Source: Escherichia coli (GTDB lineage Bacteria; Pseudomonadota; Gammaproteobacteria; Enterobacterales; Enterobacteriaceae). From it: a stretch of 64,000 bases of DNA. The stretch lies in the NCBI RefSeq assembly GCF_003334335.1, contig NZ_QOWQ01000003.1; one strand, written 5' to 3'. Position numbers and translations under genes: made by a program. The notes under the pieces are model-generated. The model saw only the letters and a list, made by a program, of their open reading frames with translations. It was not told the DNA's origin and did no database searches. Position 1 is the stretch's first letter, and each line of letters begins with the position of its first letter. Below, piece after piece: positions 3,358 through 13,158 of the stretch.

Positions 3358-4515
3358 TTAATCGTCGTCCTGTGGCAGTTCCAGAATCTTGATCGCGTTC
3401 GAATCCACCACGCCACCGCCTAAATATTTCTGCGTGAAAATTTTGATGAAGCCCGGCTCTGTGAGGTTGTCCGGTCTGGTGCGAACACCTGTTTCGTGAT
3501 CAACAATGTAGTAACCGCGTTTGAAGTCACCCAGGGCAATAACGTTATCAGGCATAAACTCCAGATATTCGACCGGAAGGCCCAGCAACGTATCAGGATC
3601 ACCCGCCTGTAAACGGTCACGCCAGATGTAATCACCGTTCGCGTTCTTCACCTTCTGGAGTTTTGCCGCCGTCGTGGAGTTAACCACCCAGACCGCGTTT
3701 TTGCGGTATTTTTTACGTAATGCAAATTTCAGGTCGATCAGCGGGTCCGCAGATGTCCACGCCAGAGATTCGGAAGGTTTAATTACCTGCAACGTACCAA
3801 AATCACGCTCTTTGTCGTTCTTCTCTGCACGGGGTACGGATAAAAAGCCTTTTGCTTTTTTGTCACCGTCGCCCACAACCAGATCGCTTTCTTCGGTTTC
3901 CGTGAAGGTGTCGCCAATCTCGCCCGTCAGCCATGAAAGGATGTCCACATCGGAAAAATCCACGATTTCCTGTGTGGTGCGCGGGTACGCATAGACCGGA
4001 TACAGCTTAATGCTCACCTCGTTAATCTGCGGGGTGCTGGTCTGTTCGCGTGTCTTACCCTCTTCACCGTGGTTAACGGTCGCACCGCCAGCGGAAACAA
4101 GCTGCTTAAACTCGTTGCTGCTGATTTTCTTCACGGTACAGATGCGGCGCATGGTGGATTCATCCGTCAGCATTCGCATGATTTCGGTGTTCAGTTCGGG
4201 GATAACGGTATAACCACCATCAGCGGGAACGCCTGTACTTAATGCGCGGGTTTCACCTGTCAGGATGTAGTTGCGGAGTTCTGCCGGGTCAGTGGTCTGG
4301 CTGCTTTTACCTGGCTTGCTGCGCTCTTCGTCTGCAATGGCTTCAAGGCGGGAAATGTCTTTATCGAGGGATTCAGCTTTAGCGCGTAATTCGTCAAATG
4401 TTGCGCCCTCAGCATCGTTAAGACTGCGGTTTTCTTTTTCCGCGTTCTCCAGCATGTCGCGCATCTGATTTTTAATGGCGGTTTTCTGCTGGCGTAATTC
4501 GATTATTCTCGGCAT
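3358..4515 (-). CDS. Major capsid protein, HK97 fold, with N-terminal coiled-coil delta domain
   Basis: 385 aa; charged coiled-coil N-terminus then HK97-type capsid body; adjacent to prohead protease. Confidence 0.9.
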   Translation of the reverse strand: MPRIIELRQQKTAIKNQMRDMLENAEKENRSLNDAEGATFDELRAKAESLDKDISRLEAIADEERSKPGKSSQTTDPAELRNYILTGETRALSTGVPADGGYTVIPELNTEIMRMLTDESTMRRICTVKKISSNEFKQLVSAGGATVNHGEEGKTREQTSTPQINEVSIKLYPVYAYPRTTQEIVDFSDVDILSWLTGEIGDTFTETEESDLVVGDGDKKAKGFLSVPRAEKNDKERDFGTLQVIKPSESLAWTSADPLIDLKFALRKKYRKNAVWVVNSTTAAKLQKVKNANGDYIWRDRLQAGDPDTLLGLPVEYLEFMPDNVIALGDFKRGYYIVDHETGVRTRPDNLTEPGFIKIFTQKYLGGGVVDSNAIKILELPQDDD

Positions 4516-5439: not shown

Positions 5440-5850
5440 TCAGAACGGAATATCATCACCGTAGGGGTCATCGTCTCCCGCTGGTGGCTGATTACCCTGT
5501 GTGCCTGTGGTTTTGCGTCTGTTCCCGCCAGGACGTGCCGCACGGGCACTGATTACGCTGTCTGCAATAACCTGATACCCCTGTCGTGTTTCCCCGTTCT
5601 GTCCGGTCCACTGGCTTACCTGCATCGTGCCGGATACGCTGGCAACATCGCCTTTTTGATGTTTAGCCAGGAAATCGGCCTGTTTGCCAAATGCGATAAC
5701 CGATAACCATAACGTCGCCTGTCCGTCATGTGCTTGGCTGCATGGCAACGATACCGCCATACGCGCCAGAGTCATCGGTGTGCCCTTGCTGCTCTGTTTT
5801 ACCAGCGGGTCGTCCACCAGGCGCCCGTAAGCTGCAATTTGTGCTGTCAT
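5440..5850 (-). CDS. ssb: Single-stranded DNA-binding protein
   Basis: 136 aa; OB-fold region aligns with E. coli SSB; Gly/Gln-rich linker and acidic C-terminal tip ending DDIPF. Confidence 0.85.
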   Translation of the reverse strand: MTAQIAAYGRLVDDPLVKQSSKGTPMTLARMAVSLPCSQAHDGQATLWLSVIAFGKQADFLAKHQKGDVASVSGTMQVSQWTGQNGETRQGYQVIADSVISARAARPGGNRRKTTGTQGNQPPAGDDDPYGDDIPF

Positions 5851-5859
5851 ATTGCCACC

Positions 5860-6165
5860 TCAGTGAAGCGATCCGGCGTTGTTCTTTTTCATCTCTTCCA
5901 TCATTTTTTCAGTGAGCATTACGCACTGAAAACCCATGTTTTTGATGTCTACGGGTTTCATGCCTTTGTCAGTGGATATCACAGGCAGAATATCCTGATA
6001 CACATCGCGGTCAGGGTAACTAAGCACACAAAGCGCCCATGATGCCACGGGTGAGGATCCTTCGTCTGTTTCAACCCACCAGCCTGGTGTAGCTGCGCTT
6101 ATTTGCTGAATCGTGATCCGTCCGTTGTGCTTGTAAAGTTTTTCACCAAATTTTGGTTCGCTCAT
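5860..6165 (-). CDS. Hypothetical protein, 101 aa
   Basis: Start overlaps upstream gene stop (ATGA); operon context; no recognisable family. Confidence 0.5.
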   Translation of the reverse strand: MSEPKFGEKLYKHNGRITIQQISAATPGWWVETDEGSSPVASWALCVLSYPDRDVYQDILPVISTDKGMKPVDIKNMGFQCVMLTEKMMEEMKKNNAGSLH

Positions 6166-6413
6166 GATTCCAACTCTCCGGTTTTAACGTTGATTGTTGT
6201 TACCTGTTCCGCTTCGGCAATCTCACGTTCTGTCAGCGTGGCAAAGTTTGCCGCTGCTGTGGTCATGAATGCGCTTATCAGGTCGGGATGTTCTTTCGCG
6301 TATCCTTCCCCCGCGTGGCGGTCTATCGTTCTGATTGCCACCTTTAAGGCGTGCTCTGTCATGTCTAACGCTTTATATTTTGGCTCTGTTCTGTCTCTGT
6401 GTTTTTGAGTCAT
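6162..6413 (-). CDS. Hypothetical protein, about 84 aa
   Basis: ORF track gives 6162..6545 but that N-terminal extension runs through the iteron array; ATG at 6413 has GAGGTG RBS. Confidence 0.45.
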   Translation of the reverse strand: MTQKHRDRTEPKYKALDMTEHALKVAIRTIDRHAGEGYAKEHPDLISAFMTTAAANFATLTEREIAEAEQVTTINVKTGELES

Positions 6414-6620
6414 TTGCCCACCTCTACCCACTTTTTTCGCCCACTTTTTACGTTTTCCCACTTCGTCCAACGTGGGAAATTTGGGATTTATATCATCTTG
6501 TTTCATAGGTATTTTTTTAGTGCCCACTTTTTGGGATATATACACGTGGGAAAGTGGGTAATTTTGTTAAAATTACGTTAAATCGCCCACCTTTCCCACT
6601 TTTAATGCCCACTTTTTACA
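6414..6620. repeat. Candidate replication origin: iteron array around an AT-rich spacer
   Basis: At least 10 copies of (G/T)CCCAC(T)n / GTGGGAAA in both orientations flanking an AT-rich segment (about 6478-6518), directly 3' of the replication protein gene. Confidence 0.6.
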
Positions 6621-8013
6621 GTGGTCCTACATCATCACCGTCAATGTAGATCACGTCGTCTTTTTCCAGTTTGGCTAACCATCGTTTAAGGTGTTTTGTG
6701 TCATACCCCAGCTTTTTCATATCGTCACGTAACAGCGGGATCGTGCACTTGTCGCCGTGCTGTGTGCGTGAACGTATGCACCCCCATAGCGCGGTATGGT
6801 TTTCCGTCTTGTTGCCTGCCTCCTCGATGCGCTCCAGTTCAACGGGAGGGCGCGGCTTATCCACCACCACCAGCGACGTGATTAACTCCCCGTCAGCGTC
6901 GGTAAAAAGCTCCACCACCCGCAAATCATAGGCAGCCTCTTTGAGTTCCTCCGCGTCCTTCATTTTGGTGCATGAGATAACCAGCGCTTCGCTTCCTGCG
7001 TCCTCCCTGCGTATCCGGTATTCAGCATCCAGCGAAGCACGAAATGCACTGGAACCGCGCGCGCCTTTCGTCTCATCCTTGCCGGAATGGTGAACCACCA
7101 GCACCGTGGCCCCTGTGCGCCGTTTAAGCTCGTCACACCCACGGATAAACGCCCCCATATCACGGGAATCATTTTCATCATTGCCACCAAAGCAACGCGC
7201 CAGAGTATCAAGAATAATCATGCGTACAGGTTTACCCGTTTCCCGCTCCACCTGACGGGCAGCGATAACCAGTTCATCAACATCAAGCGGGACAGCCGGA
7301 AAAACTGGACGGTTTACCAGATACAGATTTTTCACCTGCTCACCGTGCACAACCTCCCAGGCTTTTACACGACGCGGAACGCCGATACCGCCTTCACCAA
7401 CCACATAGAGAACAGCGCCATGCGCCACCCTGCGGCCTCCCCACTGGCGGCCCGTGGAAACGTGACACGCCCACGAACCCGCAAGGAATGATTTATAGGA
7501 ACCGCTTGCCCCGTATATGCTGCATAGCGACGATGCCGGAATAATCCCCTTTACCACGTAATCTAATTGCGTGTCGTATCCGGCAGATCCAACGCTCATC
7601 GGTAGCGTGGTTTTTCGCTGGTGGTGTTCTTCCCCTGGCTTTTTCCCCCGCTCCCGTTCCAGATATTCGCGCCAGTTCTCCCGCTTCTGGCTGTGTATCC
7701 CTTCGGGGTAATAATTCGCATCAGTTACGCCCGCCGCCGCCAGCTTGTGCGCAATGGCATTAATATTTGATGGCCTGATGTGGCCTGCCTTGTACAGCCG
7801 GACACAATAGCGCCCCTCGTCGATGATTCTCAGGTCTGCCAGTTCATCCAGTTGATCATCAGCCAGCACAATGGGAGGCACATTATCGCCAGCCAGTCGC
7901 CCGTCCTGTTCCTGCCACTGTTTCGCATGTGCCCACGCATCACTACCCGCAAAAATGATGACTTCGGTCATCTTGTCGTAAGGCTGTTTTTTTAAGTTCG
8001 GTGCGCTTTTCAT
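6616..8013 (-). CDS. Satellite replication protein, RecA/DnaB-like P-loop ATPase with N-terminal extension
   Basis: 465 aa; Walker A GASGSYKS and ILDTLARCFGG...VHHSGK helicase-like motifs; followed by the iteron array. Confidence 0.85.
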   Translation of the reverse strand: MKSAPNLKKQPYDKMTEVIIFAGSDAWAHAKQWQEQDGRLAGDNVPPIVLADDQLDELADLRIIDEGRYCVRLYKAGHIRPSNINAIAHKLAAAGVTDANYYPEGIHSQKRENWREYLERERGKKPGEEHHQRKTTLPMSVGSAGYDTQLDYVVKGIIPASSLCSIYGASGSYKSFLAGSWACHVSTGRQWGGRRVAHGAVLYVVGEGGIGVPRRVKAWEVVHGEQVKNLYLVNRPVFPAVPLDVDELVIAARQVERETGKPVRMIILDTLARCFGGNDENDSRDMGAFIRGCDELKRRTGATVLVVHHSGKDETKGARGSSAFRASLDAEYRIRREDAGSEALVISCTKMKDAEELKEAAYDLRVVELFTDADGELITSLVVVDKPRPPVELERIEEAGNKTENHTALWGCIRSRTQHGDKCTIPLLRDDMKKLGYDTKHLKRWLAKLEKDDVIYIDGDDVGPL

Positions 8014-8309
8014 TTCTTGCCCCTGAATCCGTTAATCATGTTTTTCATCTTCTGAATATTGGCGCGTGCTTTCTCCCTGCTGGTGGGCACGTTACGCGGT
8101 ACGGCCTGCACCAGAGAAAAATCACGCCGGAACTGATAAACAGGCATCACGCAATCATATTCGTAACTTTCACGACGGTAGGTTACGCGCCGTTCCTCCA
8201 CGCCCTTAATCATTACCGTGCCGCCGTACTGGTCGCGGTAAATATCACCGCGCGTAAATTTAGGGTGAGTGTTGCCACTGGCAGTTAAGCCAGAATATTT
8301 AAGTTTCAT
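8010..8309 (-). CDS. Hypothetical protein, 99 aa
   Basis: ATG with GGAG RBS; stop overlaps rep start. Confidence 0.5.
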   Translation of the reverse strand: MKLKYSGLTASGNTHPKFTRGDIYRDQYGGTVMIKGVEERRVTYRRESYEYDCVMPVYQFRRDFSLVQAVPRNVPTSREKARANIQKMKNMINGFRGKK

Positions 8310-8314
8310 TATTT

Positions 8315-8548
8315 TTATTCTCCGGTGTGCTGTTCGTTATATCTGTCGTGCAATGTCTCTATTTCTTGTAGTTCCATTATTACAGGCTCAAGAAGCGTTA
8401 TTAATGCCGTGACAATTCTTGATTTTTGTTTGTCGCGTTCATTGTCGCCAAGTGTTTCAAGCCATATGCGCAATATTTCCAGCATGTTTTCACTGTGAGA
8501 AAGTGCAAGAAATACGCGTTCTGTTGTTTCGTGGTAAATATCACGCAT
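8315..8548 (-). CDS. Hypothetical protein, 77 aa
   Basis: ATG at 8548 with GAGGA RBS; operon context. Confidence 0.5.
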   Translation of the reverse strand: MRDIYHETTERVFLALSHSENMLEILRIWLETLGDNERDKQKSRIVTALITLLEPVIMELQEIETLHDRYNEQHTGE

Positions 8549-8620
8549 GGCTTACATCCTCAGGAAATTTTCTTCTGTAACGCGCCTCTGCCACATATTC
8601 CGCATAATCGGCGGCGATAT

Positions 8621-8996: not shown

Positions 8997-9216
8997 GTAC
9001 CCCTCCGCATTTTTTTTCGTTAGAAATAAGCGTTCTTCTTTCCTGTTCATCGATCAGGAATACGCAGACCTCACCGCTAAGGCGTTTAAGTAAGCCGATG
9101 ATTGCCCCTGATTCGCTGTCGGTCATCATGCCTGGGTAATCCTCTGCCAGTGCGCAAATAACTTCGATTTGGTGGGCGCGTTCTGCTGCCTGTTGTAGTG
9201 TGATTTCCTGGCTCAT
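8986..9216 (-). CDS. Hypothetical protein, 76 aa
   Basis: ATG at 9216 overlapping stop of upstream ORF (ATGA). Confidence 0.5.
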   Translation of the reverse strand: MSQEITLQQAAERAHQIEVICALAEDYPGMMTDSESGAIIGLLKRLSGEVCVFLIDEQERRTLISNEKKCGGVHVQ

Positions 9217-9413
9217 AAGCCTACCCCCTGACGAATACGGGCAGCGAATACCATCACGCAGCCAGCCGGGGATTGCAGGCGTGCTTCCTGTTCGCTGGTG
9301 GCCTCAATGGTAATCACGCGCGGTTGTGCAGTGCTCAGGGCGATAAAACGCCAAATGTATTTATTCAGGTTGTGCGAGTCCCGCCCTTGCGGGTGTGTGG
9401 TATGATTTCTCAT
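9213..9413 (-). CDS. Hypothetical protein, 66 aa, first gene of leftward operon
   Basis: ATG at 9413 with GAGGTAG RBS; this is the only plausible part of the spurious 340-aa ORF 9213..10235. Confidence 0.45.
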   Translation of the reverse strand: MRNHTTHPQGRDSHNLNKYIWRFIALSTAQPRVITIEATSEQEARLQSPAGCVMVFAARIRQGVGL

Positions 9414-9508
9414 AGCTACCTCGATACTCTCGTTATCGTTGGTGGTTAGAAGCCCGGTTAGTGTTAGCGCACTGCCGGGTTTCGTCGTTTCTGCACCTTG
9501 CGCCAACA

Positions 9509-9566
9509 AGGTGTTGAACACCAATTTAAACCCAGGTGTTAAACACGTCAAGTGTTGAACACTTAT
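9509..9566. promoter_or_regulatory. Three palindromic operators in divergent promoter region
   Basis: GGTGTTGAACACC, GGTGTTAAACAC and AGTGTTGAACACT; last one contains TTGAAC -35 candidate with CATACT -10 about 17 bp downstream for the RHH gene. Confidence 0.5.
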
Positions 9567-9612
9567 TTTTTTTCCTGCATACTGCATTTGTTTTTTATGA
9601 GGGGTACACCAC

Positions 9613-9792
9613 ATGGCGACAAAAGCAGTAAACGCAAAATCACAAACCGTTGCGGCAAGGGTTCCGCATGAAGTTATGAACAATGTTGAGGCGGTAAAAA
9701 TGCCTGGCGAAAGTACGGGGCAATTTGTTACTGCAGCATTAAAACGAGAAGTTGAATATCGCCAGCGGCGCAAGGCCAAAGAACCAGAGTAA
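9613..9792 (+). CDS. Ribbon-helix-helix DNA-binding protein, 59 aa, candidate satellite repressor
   Basis: Not in ORF track (below 60 aa); ATG with GAGGGG RBS; AARVPHEV beta-strand then helices, typical Arc/CopG-like pattern. Confidence 0.55.
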   Translation: MATKAVNAKSQTVAARVPHEVMNNVEAVKMPGESTGQFVTAALKREVEYRQRRKAKEPE

Positions 9793-9834
9793 TCACCATC
9801 AGCGCCGTGGTGTAAGGTATTACGGCGCATTGCT

Positions 9835-10023
9835 ATGCAGGACAACACAATGACCGATAAAGAATTGACCAAAACATTATCACCGGCACGGAAAAGACGG
9901 CGCAGAAAGATAGAGCATGAATCAGAAAGATTCGCGCCATGTGCTTTTGCCCTTGAGCAATTCCTTAAAGAGTACAGGGAAAAGCGCTCATTGCAGGTAT
10001 GGCAACGAACTGAACCAGACTGA
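9835..10023 (+). CDS. Hypothetical small basic protein, 62 aa
   Basis: Lies between the RHH gene and a plus-strand terminator in the same transcription unit; weak RBS. Confidence 0.35.
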   Translation: MQDNTMTDKELTKTLSPARKRRRRKIEHESERFAPCAFALEQFLKEYREKRSLQVWQRTEPD

Positions 10024-10116
10024 TAGCATTGCCCACCAGCCTGATAGCGACTATCATTGCCGTTCTTATGTTTGGGATCACACACACAAACGGCGCAGCG
10101 GGTTATCTGTTCAGAA

Positions 10117-10148
10117 AGGCGGCTCCATTTCGGGGCCGCTTTTTTTAT
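10117..10148 (+). terminator. Rho-independent terminator of the RHH operon
   Basis: GCGGC...GCCGC hairpin followed by TTTTTTTT. Confidence 0.65.
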
Positions 10149-10292
10149 ACCTGAAAAACCCCAATTTTGTTGTTTTTCAGTTTCACCAGGGCGAACGAAT
10201 CCCCGCCCACGTTCTGGCGTATATTCAATCTTCATGGTTATAGCTCTGTGTTCAGATGATTGATGTGTGGCGGCTGCGTGCCGCCAGCGTGA

Positions 10293-10481
10293 TTAATGAA
10301 CTGCCTTGCAGCTATCCTTCCAGGCCAGAACCTCGGATAAAGACCAGCCAACGGAACGACCGCCAAGTTTACGACGTGATGGGAATTGTCCGGCCTTTTC
10401 CAGGCGGTAGCGACACGTACGGCTAAGGCCGGTTAGTTTTTCGCATTCTTTTTCACGTATAAACCGATCAGTGCTTAACAC
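10293..10481 (-). CDS. alpA: AlpA-family transcriptional regulator/excisionase
   Basis: GTG start at 10481 with strong RBS (AAGGGGGG); ORF track extends to a TTG at 10562; EKLTGLSRTCRYRLEKAGQFP HTH typical of AlpA. Confidence 0.75.
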   Translation of the reverse strand: MLSTDRFIREKECEKLTGLSRTCRYRLEKAGQFPSRRKLGGRSVGWSLSEVLAWKDSCKAVH

Positions 10482-10631
10482 TATTGCCCCCCTTTCGTTT
10501 CTTAAAGAGTCATCAGGTGTCTTATTGTGTCGTATTGTTCCCGCTAGAGTGATGAATGGCAAATATTGAGGATGTATTATTTACAGAAAATGAAACAGTA
10601 AGAATAAAATCTTTTAAATTCATGTTAATAC

Positions 10632-10846: not shown

Positions 10847-12064
10847 TTATTTTCTTCTGGCTACGGGTAGCGTGGTTACGTTTTCATGTGTTCCCGCCAG
10901 TATCCCTAACCGCTCCGTCCACATATCCAGCGCATTGCGTTTAGCATCCAGATAACGGGAATGATTATAAACTCGCTGCATTCCTGGCATCTGGTGGCCT
11001 GTAAGCTGCTCCACGACATGCGGATCAACGCCTAAATCGTTCAGCATGGTTGTAAAGGTGCGCCGGATGTCATGCAGTGACCAGTGAGGATGATTAAGCC
11101 TCCTGTGCGCTAATCTTCCATACTGCGATACGCTGGCCTCCTGTTTCACTTCCCCCAGCAATAAGCCCGTGTGCCTGTTCTGCTCCACCAGCTGCGTGAC
11201 GAACGGCAGGATCGCTTCCGGTATGGGCCGGAATATTGCGACCTTCGTTTTGCTGTGCTCCTTCGGAACGGTCCATAGCATTTCCGTAAAATCCCACTCC
11301 CCGATCTCCGATAACCTCAGTTCTACCGTTCTGGCTCCGAAGACAATCAGGAGGCGGATTAACGCGACGTAGTAAGGGGAGAATATTTTTTTGTCCAGTG
11401 CCTGCAATAATTCGCCAAGTTCTTTGTTACTTAAGACACGTTCGCTTATATCCGGTTTTTTCCCAACGTCCGCCACGTTCAGATCGTCCAGAACGTTGCT
11501 GATTGCATAGCGCCGCCTACGGCAGAACTTAAGCGCCTGTTTGCACGCCTGTAGCACGAATCCGGCAGTAACAGGCGTTCGCTTTGCCACCTGGTCAAAA
11601 CAGGCCAGCCAGTGCCGTAGCTCGCATTTATCCAGCGGCATAGCACCAATCTGCTGTATTACGTGATTATTAAGTCGCCTTTTCAGGGCGATATAATCCA
11701 CGCGGTTTTCCTTTACGTAATACTCAAGCCAGTAGGTGAGCGCATCGCCAACCGTTACGGGCTTTAACGCTTCCTGTACGGTGTAATTCATCTCATGACG
11801 TGGATTTTTCCCCTCAGCCAGCCATGTGCGACACTGTGCGGCTTTTTCCCTGGCTGCTTTCAGGCTCAGATCAGGATAACTTCCCAGCTTAATGCGTTCG
11901 GGTCGTGTCTCCCTTCCCGTTCCGGCCCTGTATGTGAAATACCAGGTCAATTTCCCTGATGTTAAATATTTCACGCTCAGGTTTCCGCCATCACTATAAA
12001 ACGTGTTTTTCTCCGCTGGCTTACCATGAAGTTTCCTTAGCAAGGTATCGCTCAGTTTGTTCAT
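10847..12064 (-). CDS. int: Tyrosine integrase, P4-like
   Basis: About 405 aa from ATG at 12064 (ORF track starts at a GTG at 12076); P4-type N-terminal arm-binding region and C-terminal catalytic region with HDIRRTF and trailing Tyr; next to insertion junction. Confidence 0.9.
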   Translation of the reverse strand: MNKLSDTLLRKLHGKPAEKNTFYSDGGNLSVKYLTSGKLTWYFTYRAGTGRETRPERIKLGSYPDLSLKAAREKAAQCRTWLAEGKNPRHEMNYTVQEALKPVTVGDALTYWLEYYVKENRVDYIALKRRLNNHVIQQIGAMPLDKCELRHWLACFDQVAKRTPVTAGFVLQACKQALKFCRRRRYAISNVLDDLNVADVGKKPDISERVLSNKELGELLQALDKKIFSPYYVALIRLLIVFGARTVELRLSEIGEWDFTEMLWTVPKEHSKTKVAIFRPIPEAILPFVTQLVEQNRHTGLLLGEVKQEASVSQYGRLAHRRLNHPHWSLHDIRRTFTTMLNDLGVDPHVVEQLTGHQMPGMQRVYNHSRYLDAKRNALDMWTERLGILAGTHENVTTLPVARRK

Positions 12065-12100
12065 TGCTCTGCTCACGTTTTACCCCCTCTTTACGAAAAA

Positions 12101-12123
12101 GTGACTACACCAGTGACTACACC
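12101..12123. repeat. Tandem direct repeat (A)GTGACTACACC x2 between int and insertion junction
   Basis: Two adjacent copies seen directly in sequence; candidate integrase arm-type site or promoter element. Confidence 0.35.
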
Positions 12124-12252
12124 GATCGTTGCACAAAGGGCTACAACGTGAAACAAGCTGGAACAAGGAAAATCACAAATCTGTTGATAATCAAAAACAT
12201 AATGCACAGCCTGAAACATTATGAAACAGCAAAAAACACTAAATGATAAAAT

Positions 12253-13158
12253 GCTGTTATTCTTAACCCGCTGGTGCAACACATGGTCCGCTGGCGTGTG
12301 CCGCGTGTACTGGCGGTGTCGATTTTGATGACCATCATCGTGATGGCGATGGTGTTGCTATTAGCTTATCTGGGTTCCGCGCTCAACGAGTTGACGCGGA
12401 CGTTACCGCAATATCGCAACTCTATTATGACGCCGCTGCAAGCGCTTGAAGCGTTGTTGCAACGCGTAGGGATTGACGTCTCAGTTGACCAGCTGGCGCA
12501 TTATATTGATCCGAACGCGGCGATGACGTTGCTCACCAACTTATTGACGCAGTTATCTAATGCCATGTCATCAATATTTTTATTGCTGCTGACGGTGCTG
12601 TTTATGCTGCTCGAAGTGCCACAATTGCCCGGAAAATTTCAGCAAATGATGGCGCGTCCGGTTGAAGGGATGGCGGCGATTCAACGTGCGATTGACAGTG
12701 TTTCTCATTATCTGGTGCTGAAAACAGCCATCAGCATCATCACCGGCCTGGTCGCCTGGGCGATGCTCGCCGCACTCGATGTTCGCTTCGCTTTTGTCTG
12801 GGGATTGCTGGCCTTTGCGCTTAATTACATCCCGAATATTGGTTCAGTCCTCGCGGCAATCCCCCCTATCGCTCAGGTACTGGTGTTTAATGGCTTCTAC
12901 GAAGCGTTGCTGGTGCTGGCGGGATATCTGCTGATTAATCTGGTCTTCGGCAATATTCTGGAGCCGCGTATCATGGGGCGTGGGCTGGGGCTTTCCACAT
13001 TGGTGGTATTTTTGTCGTTGATTTTTTGGGGATGGTTGTTAGGACCGGTGGGTATGCTGCTTTCCGTGCCGTTGACAATTATTGTCAAAATTGCGCTTGA
13101 ACAAACAGCGGGAGGTCAAAGCATCGCCGTTCTGTTAAGCGATCTCAATAAAGAGTGA
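12253..13158 (+). pseudogene. tqsA: tqsA (AI-2 exporter) 3' fragment, 5' end displaced by the satellite
   Basis: Protein matches TqsA from about residue 50 onward; in-frame TAA immediately upstream at the junction; only GTG/ATG internal starts remain. Confidence 0.8.

Follow-up and report, generated by a model that had tools for sequence, protein, structure and literature searches.

In the PICIs of Gram-negative bacteria, the origin of replication is the region immediately 3' of rep, in which two sets of iterons flank an AT-rich region (PMC6092414). The rep–ori segment of one such island, EcCICFT073, maintains a temperature-sensitive plasmid, and deletion of either rep or ori reduces maintenance (Fillol-Salom 2018, ISME J, PMC6092414), the ori deletion lowering colony numbers without abolishing them. 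For SaPIs such a design has a biochemical foundation: as summarised by Qiao et al. 2022 (PMC9371898; after Ubeda et al. 2007, 2012), they carry 6–12 penta- or hexanucleotide iterons just after rep, half of them on each side of an AT-rich centre and in opposing orientations. According to the same summary, iteron recognition lies with the C-terminal winged helix of the SaPI Rep, a self-loading helicase, and the specificity differs from one island to the next. The prototype of the capsid-forming PICIs (cf-PICIs) is EcCIEDL933 (bioRxiv 10.1101/2022.09.08.507074).

The window analysed here, a 64-kb stretch of Escherichia coli DNA, holds a rep gene and, directly behind it, a short gap crowded with iterons. 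As in the PICI and SaPI origins, the cluster lies 3' of rep, and two iteron sets flank A+T-rich DNA, with oppositely oriented copies on its two sides; a helicase with an iteron-matched C-terminal domain, the further element of such origins, is present by prediction only.

The host island and the gap behind rep

Judged by its genes and its insertion site, the element that carries rep is a capsid-forming PICI in tqsA, adjoining pntBA. It has an integrase gene, an alpA-type regulator, an att site, a size in the class of about 10–15 kb and the gene content of a satellite (Table 1); an Icd-like gene near int and alpA is followed by small genes, and a perC-like gene, a prohead protease, a portal, connectors and an HNH gene are also present. 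All genes in the rep region lie on the minus strand. The layout matches that of the cf-PICI EcCIEDL933/Sp7, the closest E. coli records have the same gene set plus TerS and TerL, and strain H19 carries an intact 15-kb counterpart island that is 97% identical. The att core is the 9-nt sequence ATAACAGCA, which was given by Fillol-Salom et al. as the core for tqsA-integrated PICIs (PMC6092414). A megablast search of positions 6100–8100 against a phage collection found nothing, since the element is a chromosomal satellite and not a deposited phage.

Within the 202-nt gap between the rep stop codon and the ATG of the next gene, 11 CCCAC cores are found, eight on the plus strand and three inverted. 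Other 202-nt stretches of the window hold at most three cores each, with a background mean of 0.26 per 202 nt, and the Poisson probability of at least 11 cores in a stretch of this length is about 7 × 10^-15. The longer motif CCCACTT occurs ten times in the window and seven times within the gap, and a motif scan of the 64 kb gave no second iteron cluster. The iteron unit, of 8 nt, is AAAGTGGG on the rep strand. The T-tail of the first iteron runs into the rep stop codon (TAA, 6616–6618), and the last iteron of the gap overlaps the Shine–Dalgarno sequence of the downstream gene. An earlier note on this DNA had described at least ten copies of CCCAC(T)n, in both orientations, bracketing an AT-rich stretch directly after the rep stop codon; the count of 11, the overlap with the stop codon and the filling of the gap by the cluster bear out this description.

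The G+C content of the gap is 39%, compared with 51% for the window. Its main A+T-rich stretch, the candidate unwinding element, sits between iterons of opposite orientation (6523 and 6472) and belongs, by nearest-neighbour stability, to the ten 40-mers with the lowest stability in the window (z = +3.26), although this instability is moderate, ranking second within the island behind the int–alpA gap at 10576. A search of the region with the motif TTWTNCACA gave no DnaA box, and an Rfam search of 5800–8600 gave no RNA family, one chance-level match aside.

The frame of the downstream gene remains open for 44 usable codons upstream of its ATG in the window, as far as a GTG codon at 6545, and it might be supposed that the gap is a coding N-terminal extension, the repeats being a repetitive peptide or chance low complexity. 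This extra open frame is seen in the window and in three relatives, but in five of 12 relatives an in-frame stop closes it only one or two codons before the ATG, and in three others 9–25 codons before it, and the gap length varies among relatives from 200 to 203 nt, which shifts the frame. Moreover, the PHROG 1231 profile aligns with exactly residues 1–83 of the 83-residue downstream protein, PGAP starts the gene at the ATG (252 nt in 11 relatives), and the repeats occur on both strands, far past chance. A coding extension can accordingly be given almost no credence. The earlier suspicion that 6414–6545 does not code holds on these comparisons: the extension is non-coding as judged from frame conservation, and the start of the downstream gene is corrected to the ATG at 6413.

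Table 1. Features of the rep region and of the island in the window (positions counted from the first nucleotide of the window)
Feature	Position	Strand	Remark
HK97-type major capsid protein	3358–4515		
SSB	5440–5850		
Downstream gene, true extent	6162–6413	-	83 aa from ATG 6413; PHROG 1231, function unknown
Open-frame extension of downstream gene	6414–6545	-	Start GTG 6545; not coding, as judged from frame conservation
Gap between rep stop and next gene ATG	6414–6615		202 nt; predicted origin of replication
CCCAC cores, plus strand	starts 6417, 6427, 6440, 6457, 6523, 6586, 6595, 6608	+	
CCCAC cores, minus strand	starts 6472, 6546, 6554	-	
Rep-distal array	6417–6463	+	Four direct iterons; cores 6417, 6427, 6440, 6457
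Single inverted iteron	6469–6476	-	CCCACGTT on minus strand
Main A+T-rich stretch	6479–6519		Candidate unwinding element; 70–80% A+T
Central direct iteron	6523–6530	+	CCCACTTT
TATATA element	6537–6542		Between inverted iterons and next direct iteron
Two inverted iterons	6543–6558	-	CCCACTTTCCCACGTG on minus strand; cores 6554–6558, 6546–6550
First A+T-rich spacer	6556–6585		70–85% A+T in 20-nt windows
Rep-proximal array	6586–6615	+	Three direct iterons; CCCAC at 6586, 6595, 6608; AAAGTGGG on rep strand
rep	6616–8013	-	465-aa initiator-helicase; 'helicase RepA family protein' in RefSeq relatives
Predicted C-terminal winged helix of Rep	6619–6804	-	aa 404–465; three helices and beta-hairpin wing
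His441 codon	6691–6693	-	
RecA-fold helicase core of Rep	7072–7578	-	aa 146–314; AAA_25 (Pfam)
N-terminal module of Rep	7639–8013	-	aa 1–125; function unknown; common to primase-type Reps of EcCICFT073 and Sp7/EcCIEDL933
DUF4222 gene	8010–8309		
alpA-like excisionase/regulator	within 10293–10562		
Tyrosine integrase (int)	10847–12076		
att core	12252–12260		9 nt

Co-variation of Rep and iterons

The core of Rep is predicted to be a RecA-fold domain like that of RSF1010 RepA, and the C-terminal part joined to it to be a winged helix. A profile built from 27 homologues matches the hexameric helicase RepA of RSF1010 (1g8y, E = 6.5e-8), and the P-loop, YGASGSYKS with Lys174, is deviant in its GASGSYKS part (Tyr where Gly is usual) yet conserved. 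Neither a primase nor an SF3 match was obtained for the window Rep, so that priming would need a host enzyme; Rep homologues in other genera have a zinc-finger/primase N-terminus. The N-terminal 125 residues, for which Pfam gave no match, occur as two alleles of about 43% identity within the RepA family, and they are 63% identical to the Rep of EcCICFT073 and 68% identical to that of Sp7, with nothing alignable beyond residue 125. A sequence search of the PDB with the C-terminal 76 residues likewise gave no match. In an AF2 model built from 27 sequences, His441 is predicted to occupy the third position of the third helix, which is the putative recognition helix (model residues 314–326, with His at model residue 316); eight near-identical sequences gave a pLDDT of 51.

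A blastn search with the Rep C-terminus plus the gap found the RepA-type replicon in at least 674 of 5,426 complete E. coli genomes, and it is carried by classical and capsid-forming PICIs as well as by related elements across the Enterobacterales. Twelve RepA-type loci of E. coli were compared (ten further variants besides L001). The iteron class is uniform within each locus, over direct and inverted copies alike, being GTGGG at seven loci and GTGAG at five, and the sole column of the 12 Rep proteins that separates these two groups is residue 441 (alignment column 447), which is His or Asn, respectively, and lies in the motif LGYxxK[H/N]xxRWLxKLE. At one locus (L014) only the distal half of the gap region is kept.

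A wider scan with one genome per species added 76 loci, from Xenorhabdus, Kosakonia, Kluyvera, Serratia, Pectobacterium, Erwinia, Morganella, Vibrio and other genera, and in all of those examined a repeat cluster lies within 230–260 nt after the rep stop. The architecture is also shared across genera: after the rep stop come direct iterons (two or three), a spacer and one or two inverted copies, then TATAYA and a single direct iteron; beyond these lie an A+T-rich stretch of about 45–50 nt, often a lone inverted iteron, and two to four direct ones. The position of the rep-proximal array is kept across genera, and TATAYA stands at the same position in most related loci.

Residue and iteron were paired for the 69 loci that keep the RW motif, with a threshold of four iteron copies. 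Asn at position 441 goes with the dominant core GTGAG (25 loci), Lys with GTGGG (19 loci), His with GTGGG (11 loci) and Ser with GTGCG (five loci); control counts of the cores inside rep are about 0–1 per equivalent length. None of the 69 loci is discordant, nine of them falling under the four-copy threshold; most of these nine are compatible on relaxed cores (TGAGG for Asn and TGGGG for Lys), and two loci with His (L062 and L064) are ambiguous, with weak TGGGT repeats only. On a neighbour-joining tree of the helicase part only, the residue changes ten times, the base nine times and the joint state ten times, indicating that both characters always move together. These approximately nine independent co-transitions represent a natural experiment on specificity change in winged-helix initiators, and some of them surely reflect recombination of a cassette made up of the C-terminal domain and the origin, which leads to the same conclusion. 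In distant homologues with unrelated C-termini (from Pseudomonas, Sphingomonas and metagenome bins), the downstream repeats are unrelated.

The pairing of His or Lys with G and of Asn with A is in line with common protein–DNA contact preferences, and together with the modelled position of residue 441 it suggests that this residue may contact base 4 of the iteron. Whether residue 441 alone sets which origin is fired by RepA-type helicases (His or Lys for G, Asn for A and Ser for C, with all 8–11 iterons switching together) is a question on which we put the chances as even. If it does, satellite replicons would be sorted into orthogonal specificity groups by a code of one residue and one base, and this code would be re-programmable; for example, the substitution H441N should shift Rep to GTGAG origins. 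The residue/base pairing may also offer a route to orthogonal mini-replicons. The idea that iterons diversified in order to avoid incompatibility between co-resident islands was also considered and is unsupported, because several Xenorhabdus genomes hold two or three loci of the same Asn/GTGAG class.

The same cassette bears on another reading of the repeats. Small terminases often bind short repeated sequences, and an island that encodes its own HNH, TerS and TerL proteins might use the cluster as a packaging recognition site (cos or pac) bound by the small terminase. However, the repeats co-vary with the C-terminal domain of Rep, and the cassette is found with EcCICFT073-like capsid/decoration, protease–capsid fusion and terS-only modules, as well as at loci of other genera with unrelated neighbours, while the near-identical island of H19 keeps the packaging genes yet has the other iteron class. 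A packaging site is very improbable, given this range of unrelated packaging modules and the differing iteron class of H19.

As a pattern in sequences, the co-variation demonstrates recognition of the iterons by Rep, and not initiation. It would thus also be accommodated if the repeats were Rep-binding operators for the downstream operon (the 83-aa gene, SSB, the perC-like gene and the capsid genes), or served autoregulation or a limit on copy number, with the origin elsewhere or with replication driven by the helper phage. Plasmid iterons often double as operators, the last iteron overlaps the Shine–Dalgarno sequence of the next gene, and the conserved, iteron-flanked TATAYA could be a weak -10 element. 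However, neither a sigma-70-like promoter nor an intrinsic terminator was predicted within 6414–6615, the binder is a helicase and not a regulator, the sites lie downstream of rep and not at its promoter, the window has no second iteron cluster, and the same slot contributes to replication in EcCICFT073 (PMC6092414). We regard operators in place of an origin as unlikely, whereas the repeats may have a dual role in origin function and local regulation, given that the last iteron extends over the ribosome-binding site of the next gene.

The gap as a probable replication origin

The islands used for comparison were EcCICFT073, taken from the CFT073 genome, and Sakai Sp7, the equivalent of EcCIEDL933. 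The order DUF4222 gene, rep, gap, 83–85-aa gene, SSB, PerC is common to these two islands and the window, and the window iterons occupy the same syntenic slot as the tested ori of EcCICFT073. The Rep proteins of EcCICFT073 (584 aa) and Sp7 (710 aa) are both of the primase type; the gap repeats are TGTCTACC/GGTAGA in the former and about a dozen copies of TAACCCGCA/GCGGGTTA in the latter. One slot is therefore occupied by three Rep types, each with its own iteron. Such a pattern would be seen if the gap were the cognate origin and moved along with the part of rep that sets specificity. The iterons accompany rep in islands with differing packaging modules.

The resemblance between the window and EcCICFT073 extends to the island as a whole. 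Each is a satellite island that has int and alpA, their Reps are homologous over the N-terminal 125 residues, and in both cases short iterons in both orientations surround A+T-rich DNA directly 3' of rep. In contrast, the EcCICFT073 Rep belongs to the 'DNA primase family' and lacks any helicase or C-terminal domain that can be aligned, its iterons differ from the CCCACTTT of the window, and its gap is 289 nt long compared with 202 nt. The experimental test of an origin concerns the EcCICFT073 ori only, and the origin in the window is predicted from sequence.

The earlier proposal that the gap is an origin is supported by the tested slot of EcCICFT073, by the cassette swaps, by the co-variation over 69 loci and by the conserved layout, and on this comparative evidence the gap is very probably the replication origin of the cf-PICI in tqsA. 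In the mechanism proposed here, a helper phage would induce the island and Rep would be made from the gene upstream of the gap. Rep would act as a self-loading initiator-helicase, composed of a RecA-fold hexameric helicase and a C-terminal winged helix; the winged helix would read the iterons, and His441, near the beginning of the recognition helix, would be placed so as to recognise base 4 of GTGGG. Where iterons face in opposite orientations, the Rep assemblies bound to them would then open the intervening A+T-rich DNA and load the helicase, much as has been proposed for SaPI Reps. From the sequence comparisons and from the analogy with described islands, we infer physical binding by Rep, melting and Rep-dependent replication. 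If the gap is the origin, the C-terminal domain of Rep (residues ~395–465) would prefer AAAGTGGG DNA over AAAGTGAG.

Comparison with known replicons

Phage P4 is a satellite of E. coli phages; in its initiator, a helicase is joined to a C-terminal domain, and this domain binds short octamer repeats. P4 has two cis regions, ori and crr, which are several kilobases apart, and its alpha protein is a primase plus an SF3 helicase. In contrast, the window has a single iteron cluster and a RecA-fold helicase with no primase domain, which places the locus outside the P4-type replicons. The earlier note had spoken of a classic rep-then-ori layout of the P4/PICI type; the PICI half of this comparison stands, the design being published and the slot being the same, whereas the likeness to P4 is less close, since P4 relies on two cis sites that lie apart. 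P4 is mentioned in PMC6092414.

The helicase core of RepA (PDB 1G8Y) is the only part of the IncQ plasmid RSF1010 that is homologous to the window system. In IncQ plasmids, the initiator RepC acts on 20-bp direct iterons, the primase RepB' acts at ssi sites, and RepA is devoid of a domain that reads DNA sequence. The window helicase instead has its own predicted winged helix, and its iterons are 8 nt long and occur in both orientations. No homologue of RepC or RepB was seen adjoining rep, where the neighbours are the DUF4222 gene, the PHROG 1231 gene and SSB, and the locus is not an IncQ (RSF1010) replicon.

Classical iteron plasmids (pSC101, R6K, F, P1 and RK2) have direct iterons of 17–22 bp that are helically phased, a non-helicase WH1–WH2 initiator, and a dependence on DnaA boxes and host DnaB. 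As in these plasmids, the window element has its own initiator, with repeats beside an A+T-rich region. Unlike the origins of these Rep_3-type plasmids, however, the cluster consists of 8-nt iterons, is served by an AAA_25 helicase as the putative initiator and has no DnaA box; it is not a classical Rep_3-type iteron origin.

The SaPI replicons resemble the window in having the ori immediately downstream of rep and in combining a helicase with a C-terminal winged helix, which in the window Rep is predicted. The SaPI Reps belong to the AAA+ helicases, either to SF3 or to the MCM-like SF6 group, whereas the window Rep is of the RecA-fold, RSF1010-RepA-like type, and there is no sequence similarity between the two; SaPI hosts are also Gram-positive. 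In the window, unlike in SaPIs, direct repeats make up most of the arrays and the inverted copies lie centrally.

In conclusion, an origin at this place is to be expected in a PICI. The rep-then-ori design of PICIs is already published, so that the general picture is unchanged, and the cassette in the window differs from the tested one. A literature search gave no relevant later work on the iterons and helicases of E. coli PICIs, and the iterons drawn in Fig. 2a of Fillol-Salom 2018 lie outside this comparison. What this analysis provides for the RepA-type replicon is a concrete predicted origin (6414–6615) and a map of the domains of its initiator. Two points go beyond the literature searched: the strict co-variation of one residue with one base, and the predicted RecA-fold, RepA-like core of the initiator. 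If the latter is true, a PICI-type initiator would be built on a RecA-fold (SF4-like) helicase, in contrast to the SF3 or MCM-like cores known from SaPIs.

Probable exchange of Rep/origin classes

The island of strain H19 (L091) occupies the same tqsA site as the window's island and is 97% identical to it overall, yet its Rep (11040-12440, the counterpart of 6616-8013 in the window) and its origin are of the class that combines Asn with GTGAG iterons, rather than the His441/GTGGG class of the window. This difference of class, despite such identity and a shared insertion site, indicates a recent swap of the Rep/origin cassette inside a single island backbone. In two further E. coli relatives, L011 and L012, the Reps differ hardly at all except at the C-terminus, yet they are of opposite classes, and the origin of each keeps one iteron of the opposite class.

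The two TTTGGGA half-sites of the window look like truncated inverted iterons. GTGAG-class loci have CTCAAA in place of the half-site at 6530-6536, and this half-site thus co-varies with the iteron class too. In E. coli O111:H8 1056-1 (L014) the gap downstream of rep is only 116 nt long (1401-1516). What it contains is the half of the origin farther from rep, starting at the central iteron; the proximal array, the inverted pair and the TATATA element are all missing. This short gap may represent a minimal origin or have arisen by a natural deletion.

Island ends and the Icd-like ORF

The island's terS is broken by the insertion sequence about 100 nt past the start of the gene, at a G/C-rich junction with a GGGG-N8-CCCC look; the IS421/IS186-family element is present in 8,422 copies in E. 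coli genomes. Self-packaging is therefore probably lost in this copy of the island, although its replicon looks intact. The gene of insertion is tqsA (region 12077-12300), the leftover ORF of which (12274-13158) matches the AI-2E transporter profile from position 52 onward only; ATAACAGCA is given as the att core of tqsA PICIs (Fillol-Salom 2018, Table S1). The Icd-like domain of the 340-aa ORF is confined to its C-terminus (residues 293-336), and the annotation of relatives divides the matching stretch into an Ash-family gene (pseudogene) and a separate Icd-like gene.

Features of the island and its ends in the window
Feature	Position	Strand
End of IS4-like IS421/IS186-family insertion sequence	1-75	
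terS (small terminase), 5' end	76-176	-
TTTGGGA half-sites, n=2 (rep strand: TCCCAAA)	6480-6486, 6530-6536	
Rep P-loop GASGSYKS, aa 168-175	7489-7512	
Rep N-terminal module, aa 1-125	7639-8013	
340-aa ORF	9213-10235	
att core ATAACAGCA	12252-12260	

Modular architecture of Rep

The Rep P-loop carries Tyr at the consensus Gly position of Walker A, and this Tyr is almost invariant among 27 homologues from many genera. In other genera (L015-L072; for example L015 978-3017, L041 1008-3041 and L037 1674-3038) the helicase-plus-winged-helix unit is joined to varied N-termini: in Xenorhabdus, Serratia, Pectobacterium and Morganella, where the whole protein measures about 680-700 aa, a zinc-finger/primase-like region, and in Kosakonia and Enterobacter (about 455 aa) a module that is unrelated and about 115 aa long. 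Some proteins, at about 360 aa, carry nothing extra at the N-terminus. No primase is recognisable in the E. coli RepA-type Rep, and its residues 1-125 have no match in Pfam. Within the RepA type this module occurs as two alleles, about 43% identical, and a recombination breakpoint seems to lie directly after it. The module is common, at 63-68% identity, to three otherwise unrelated Rep types: the RepA type, the EcCICFT073 primase type and the Sp7/EcCIEDL933 type.
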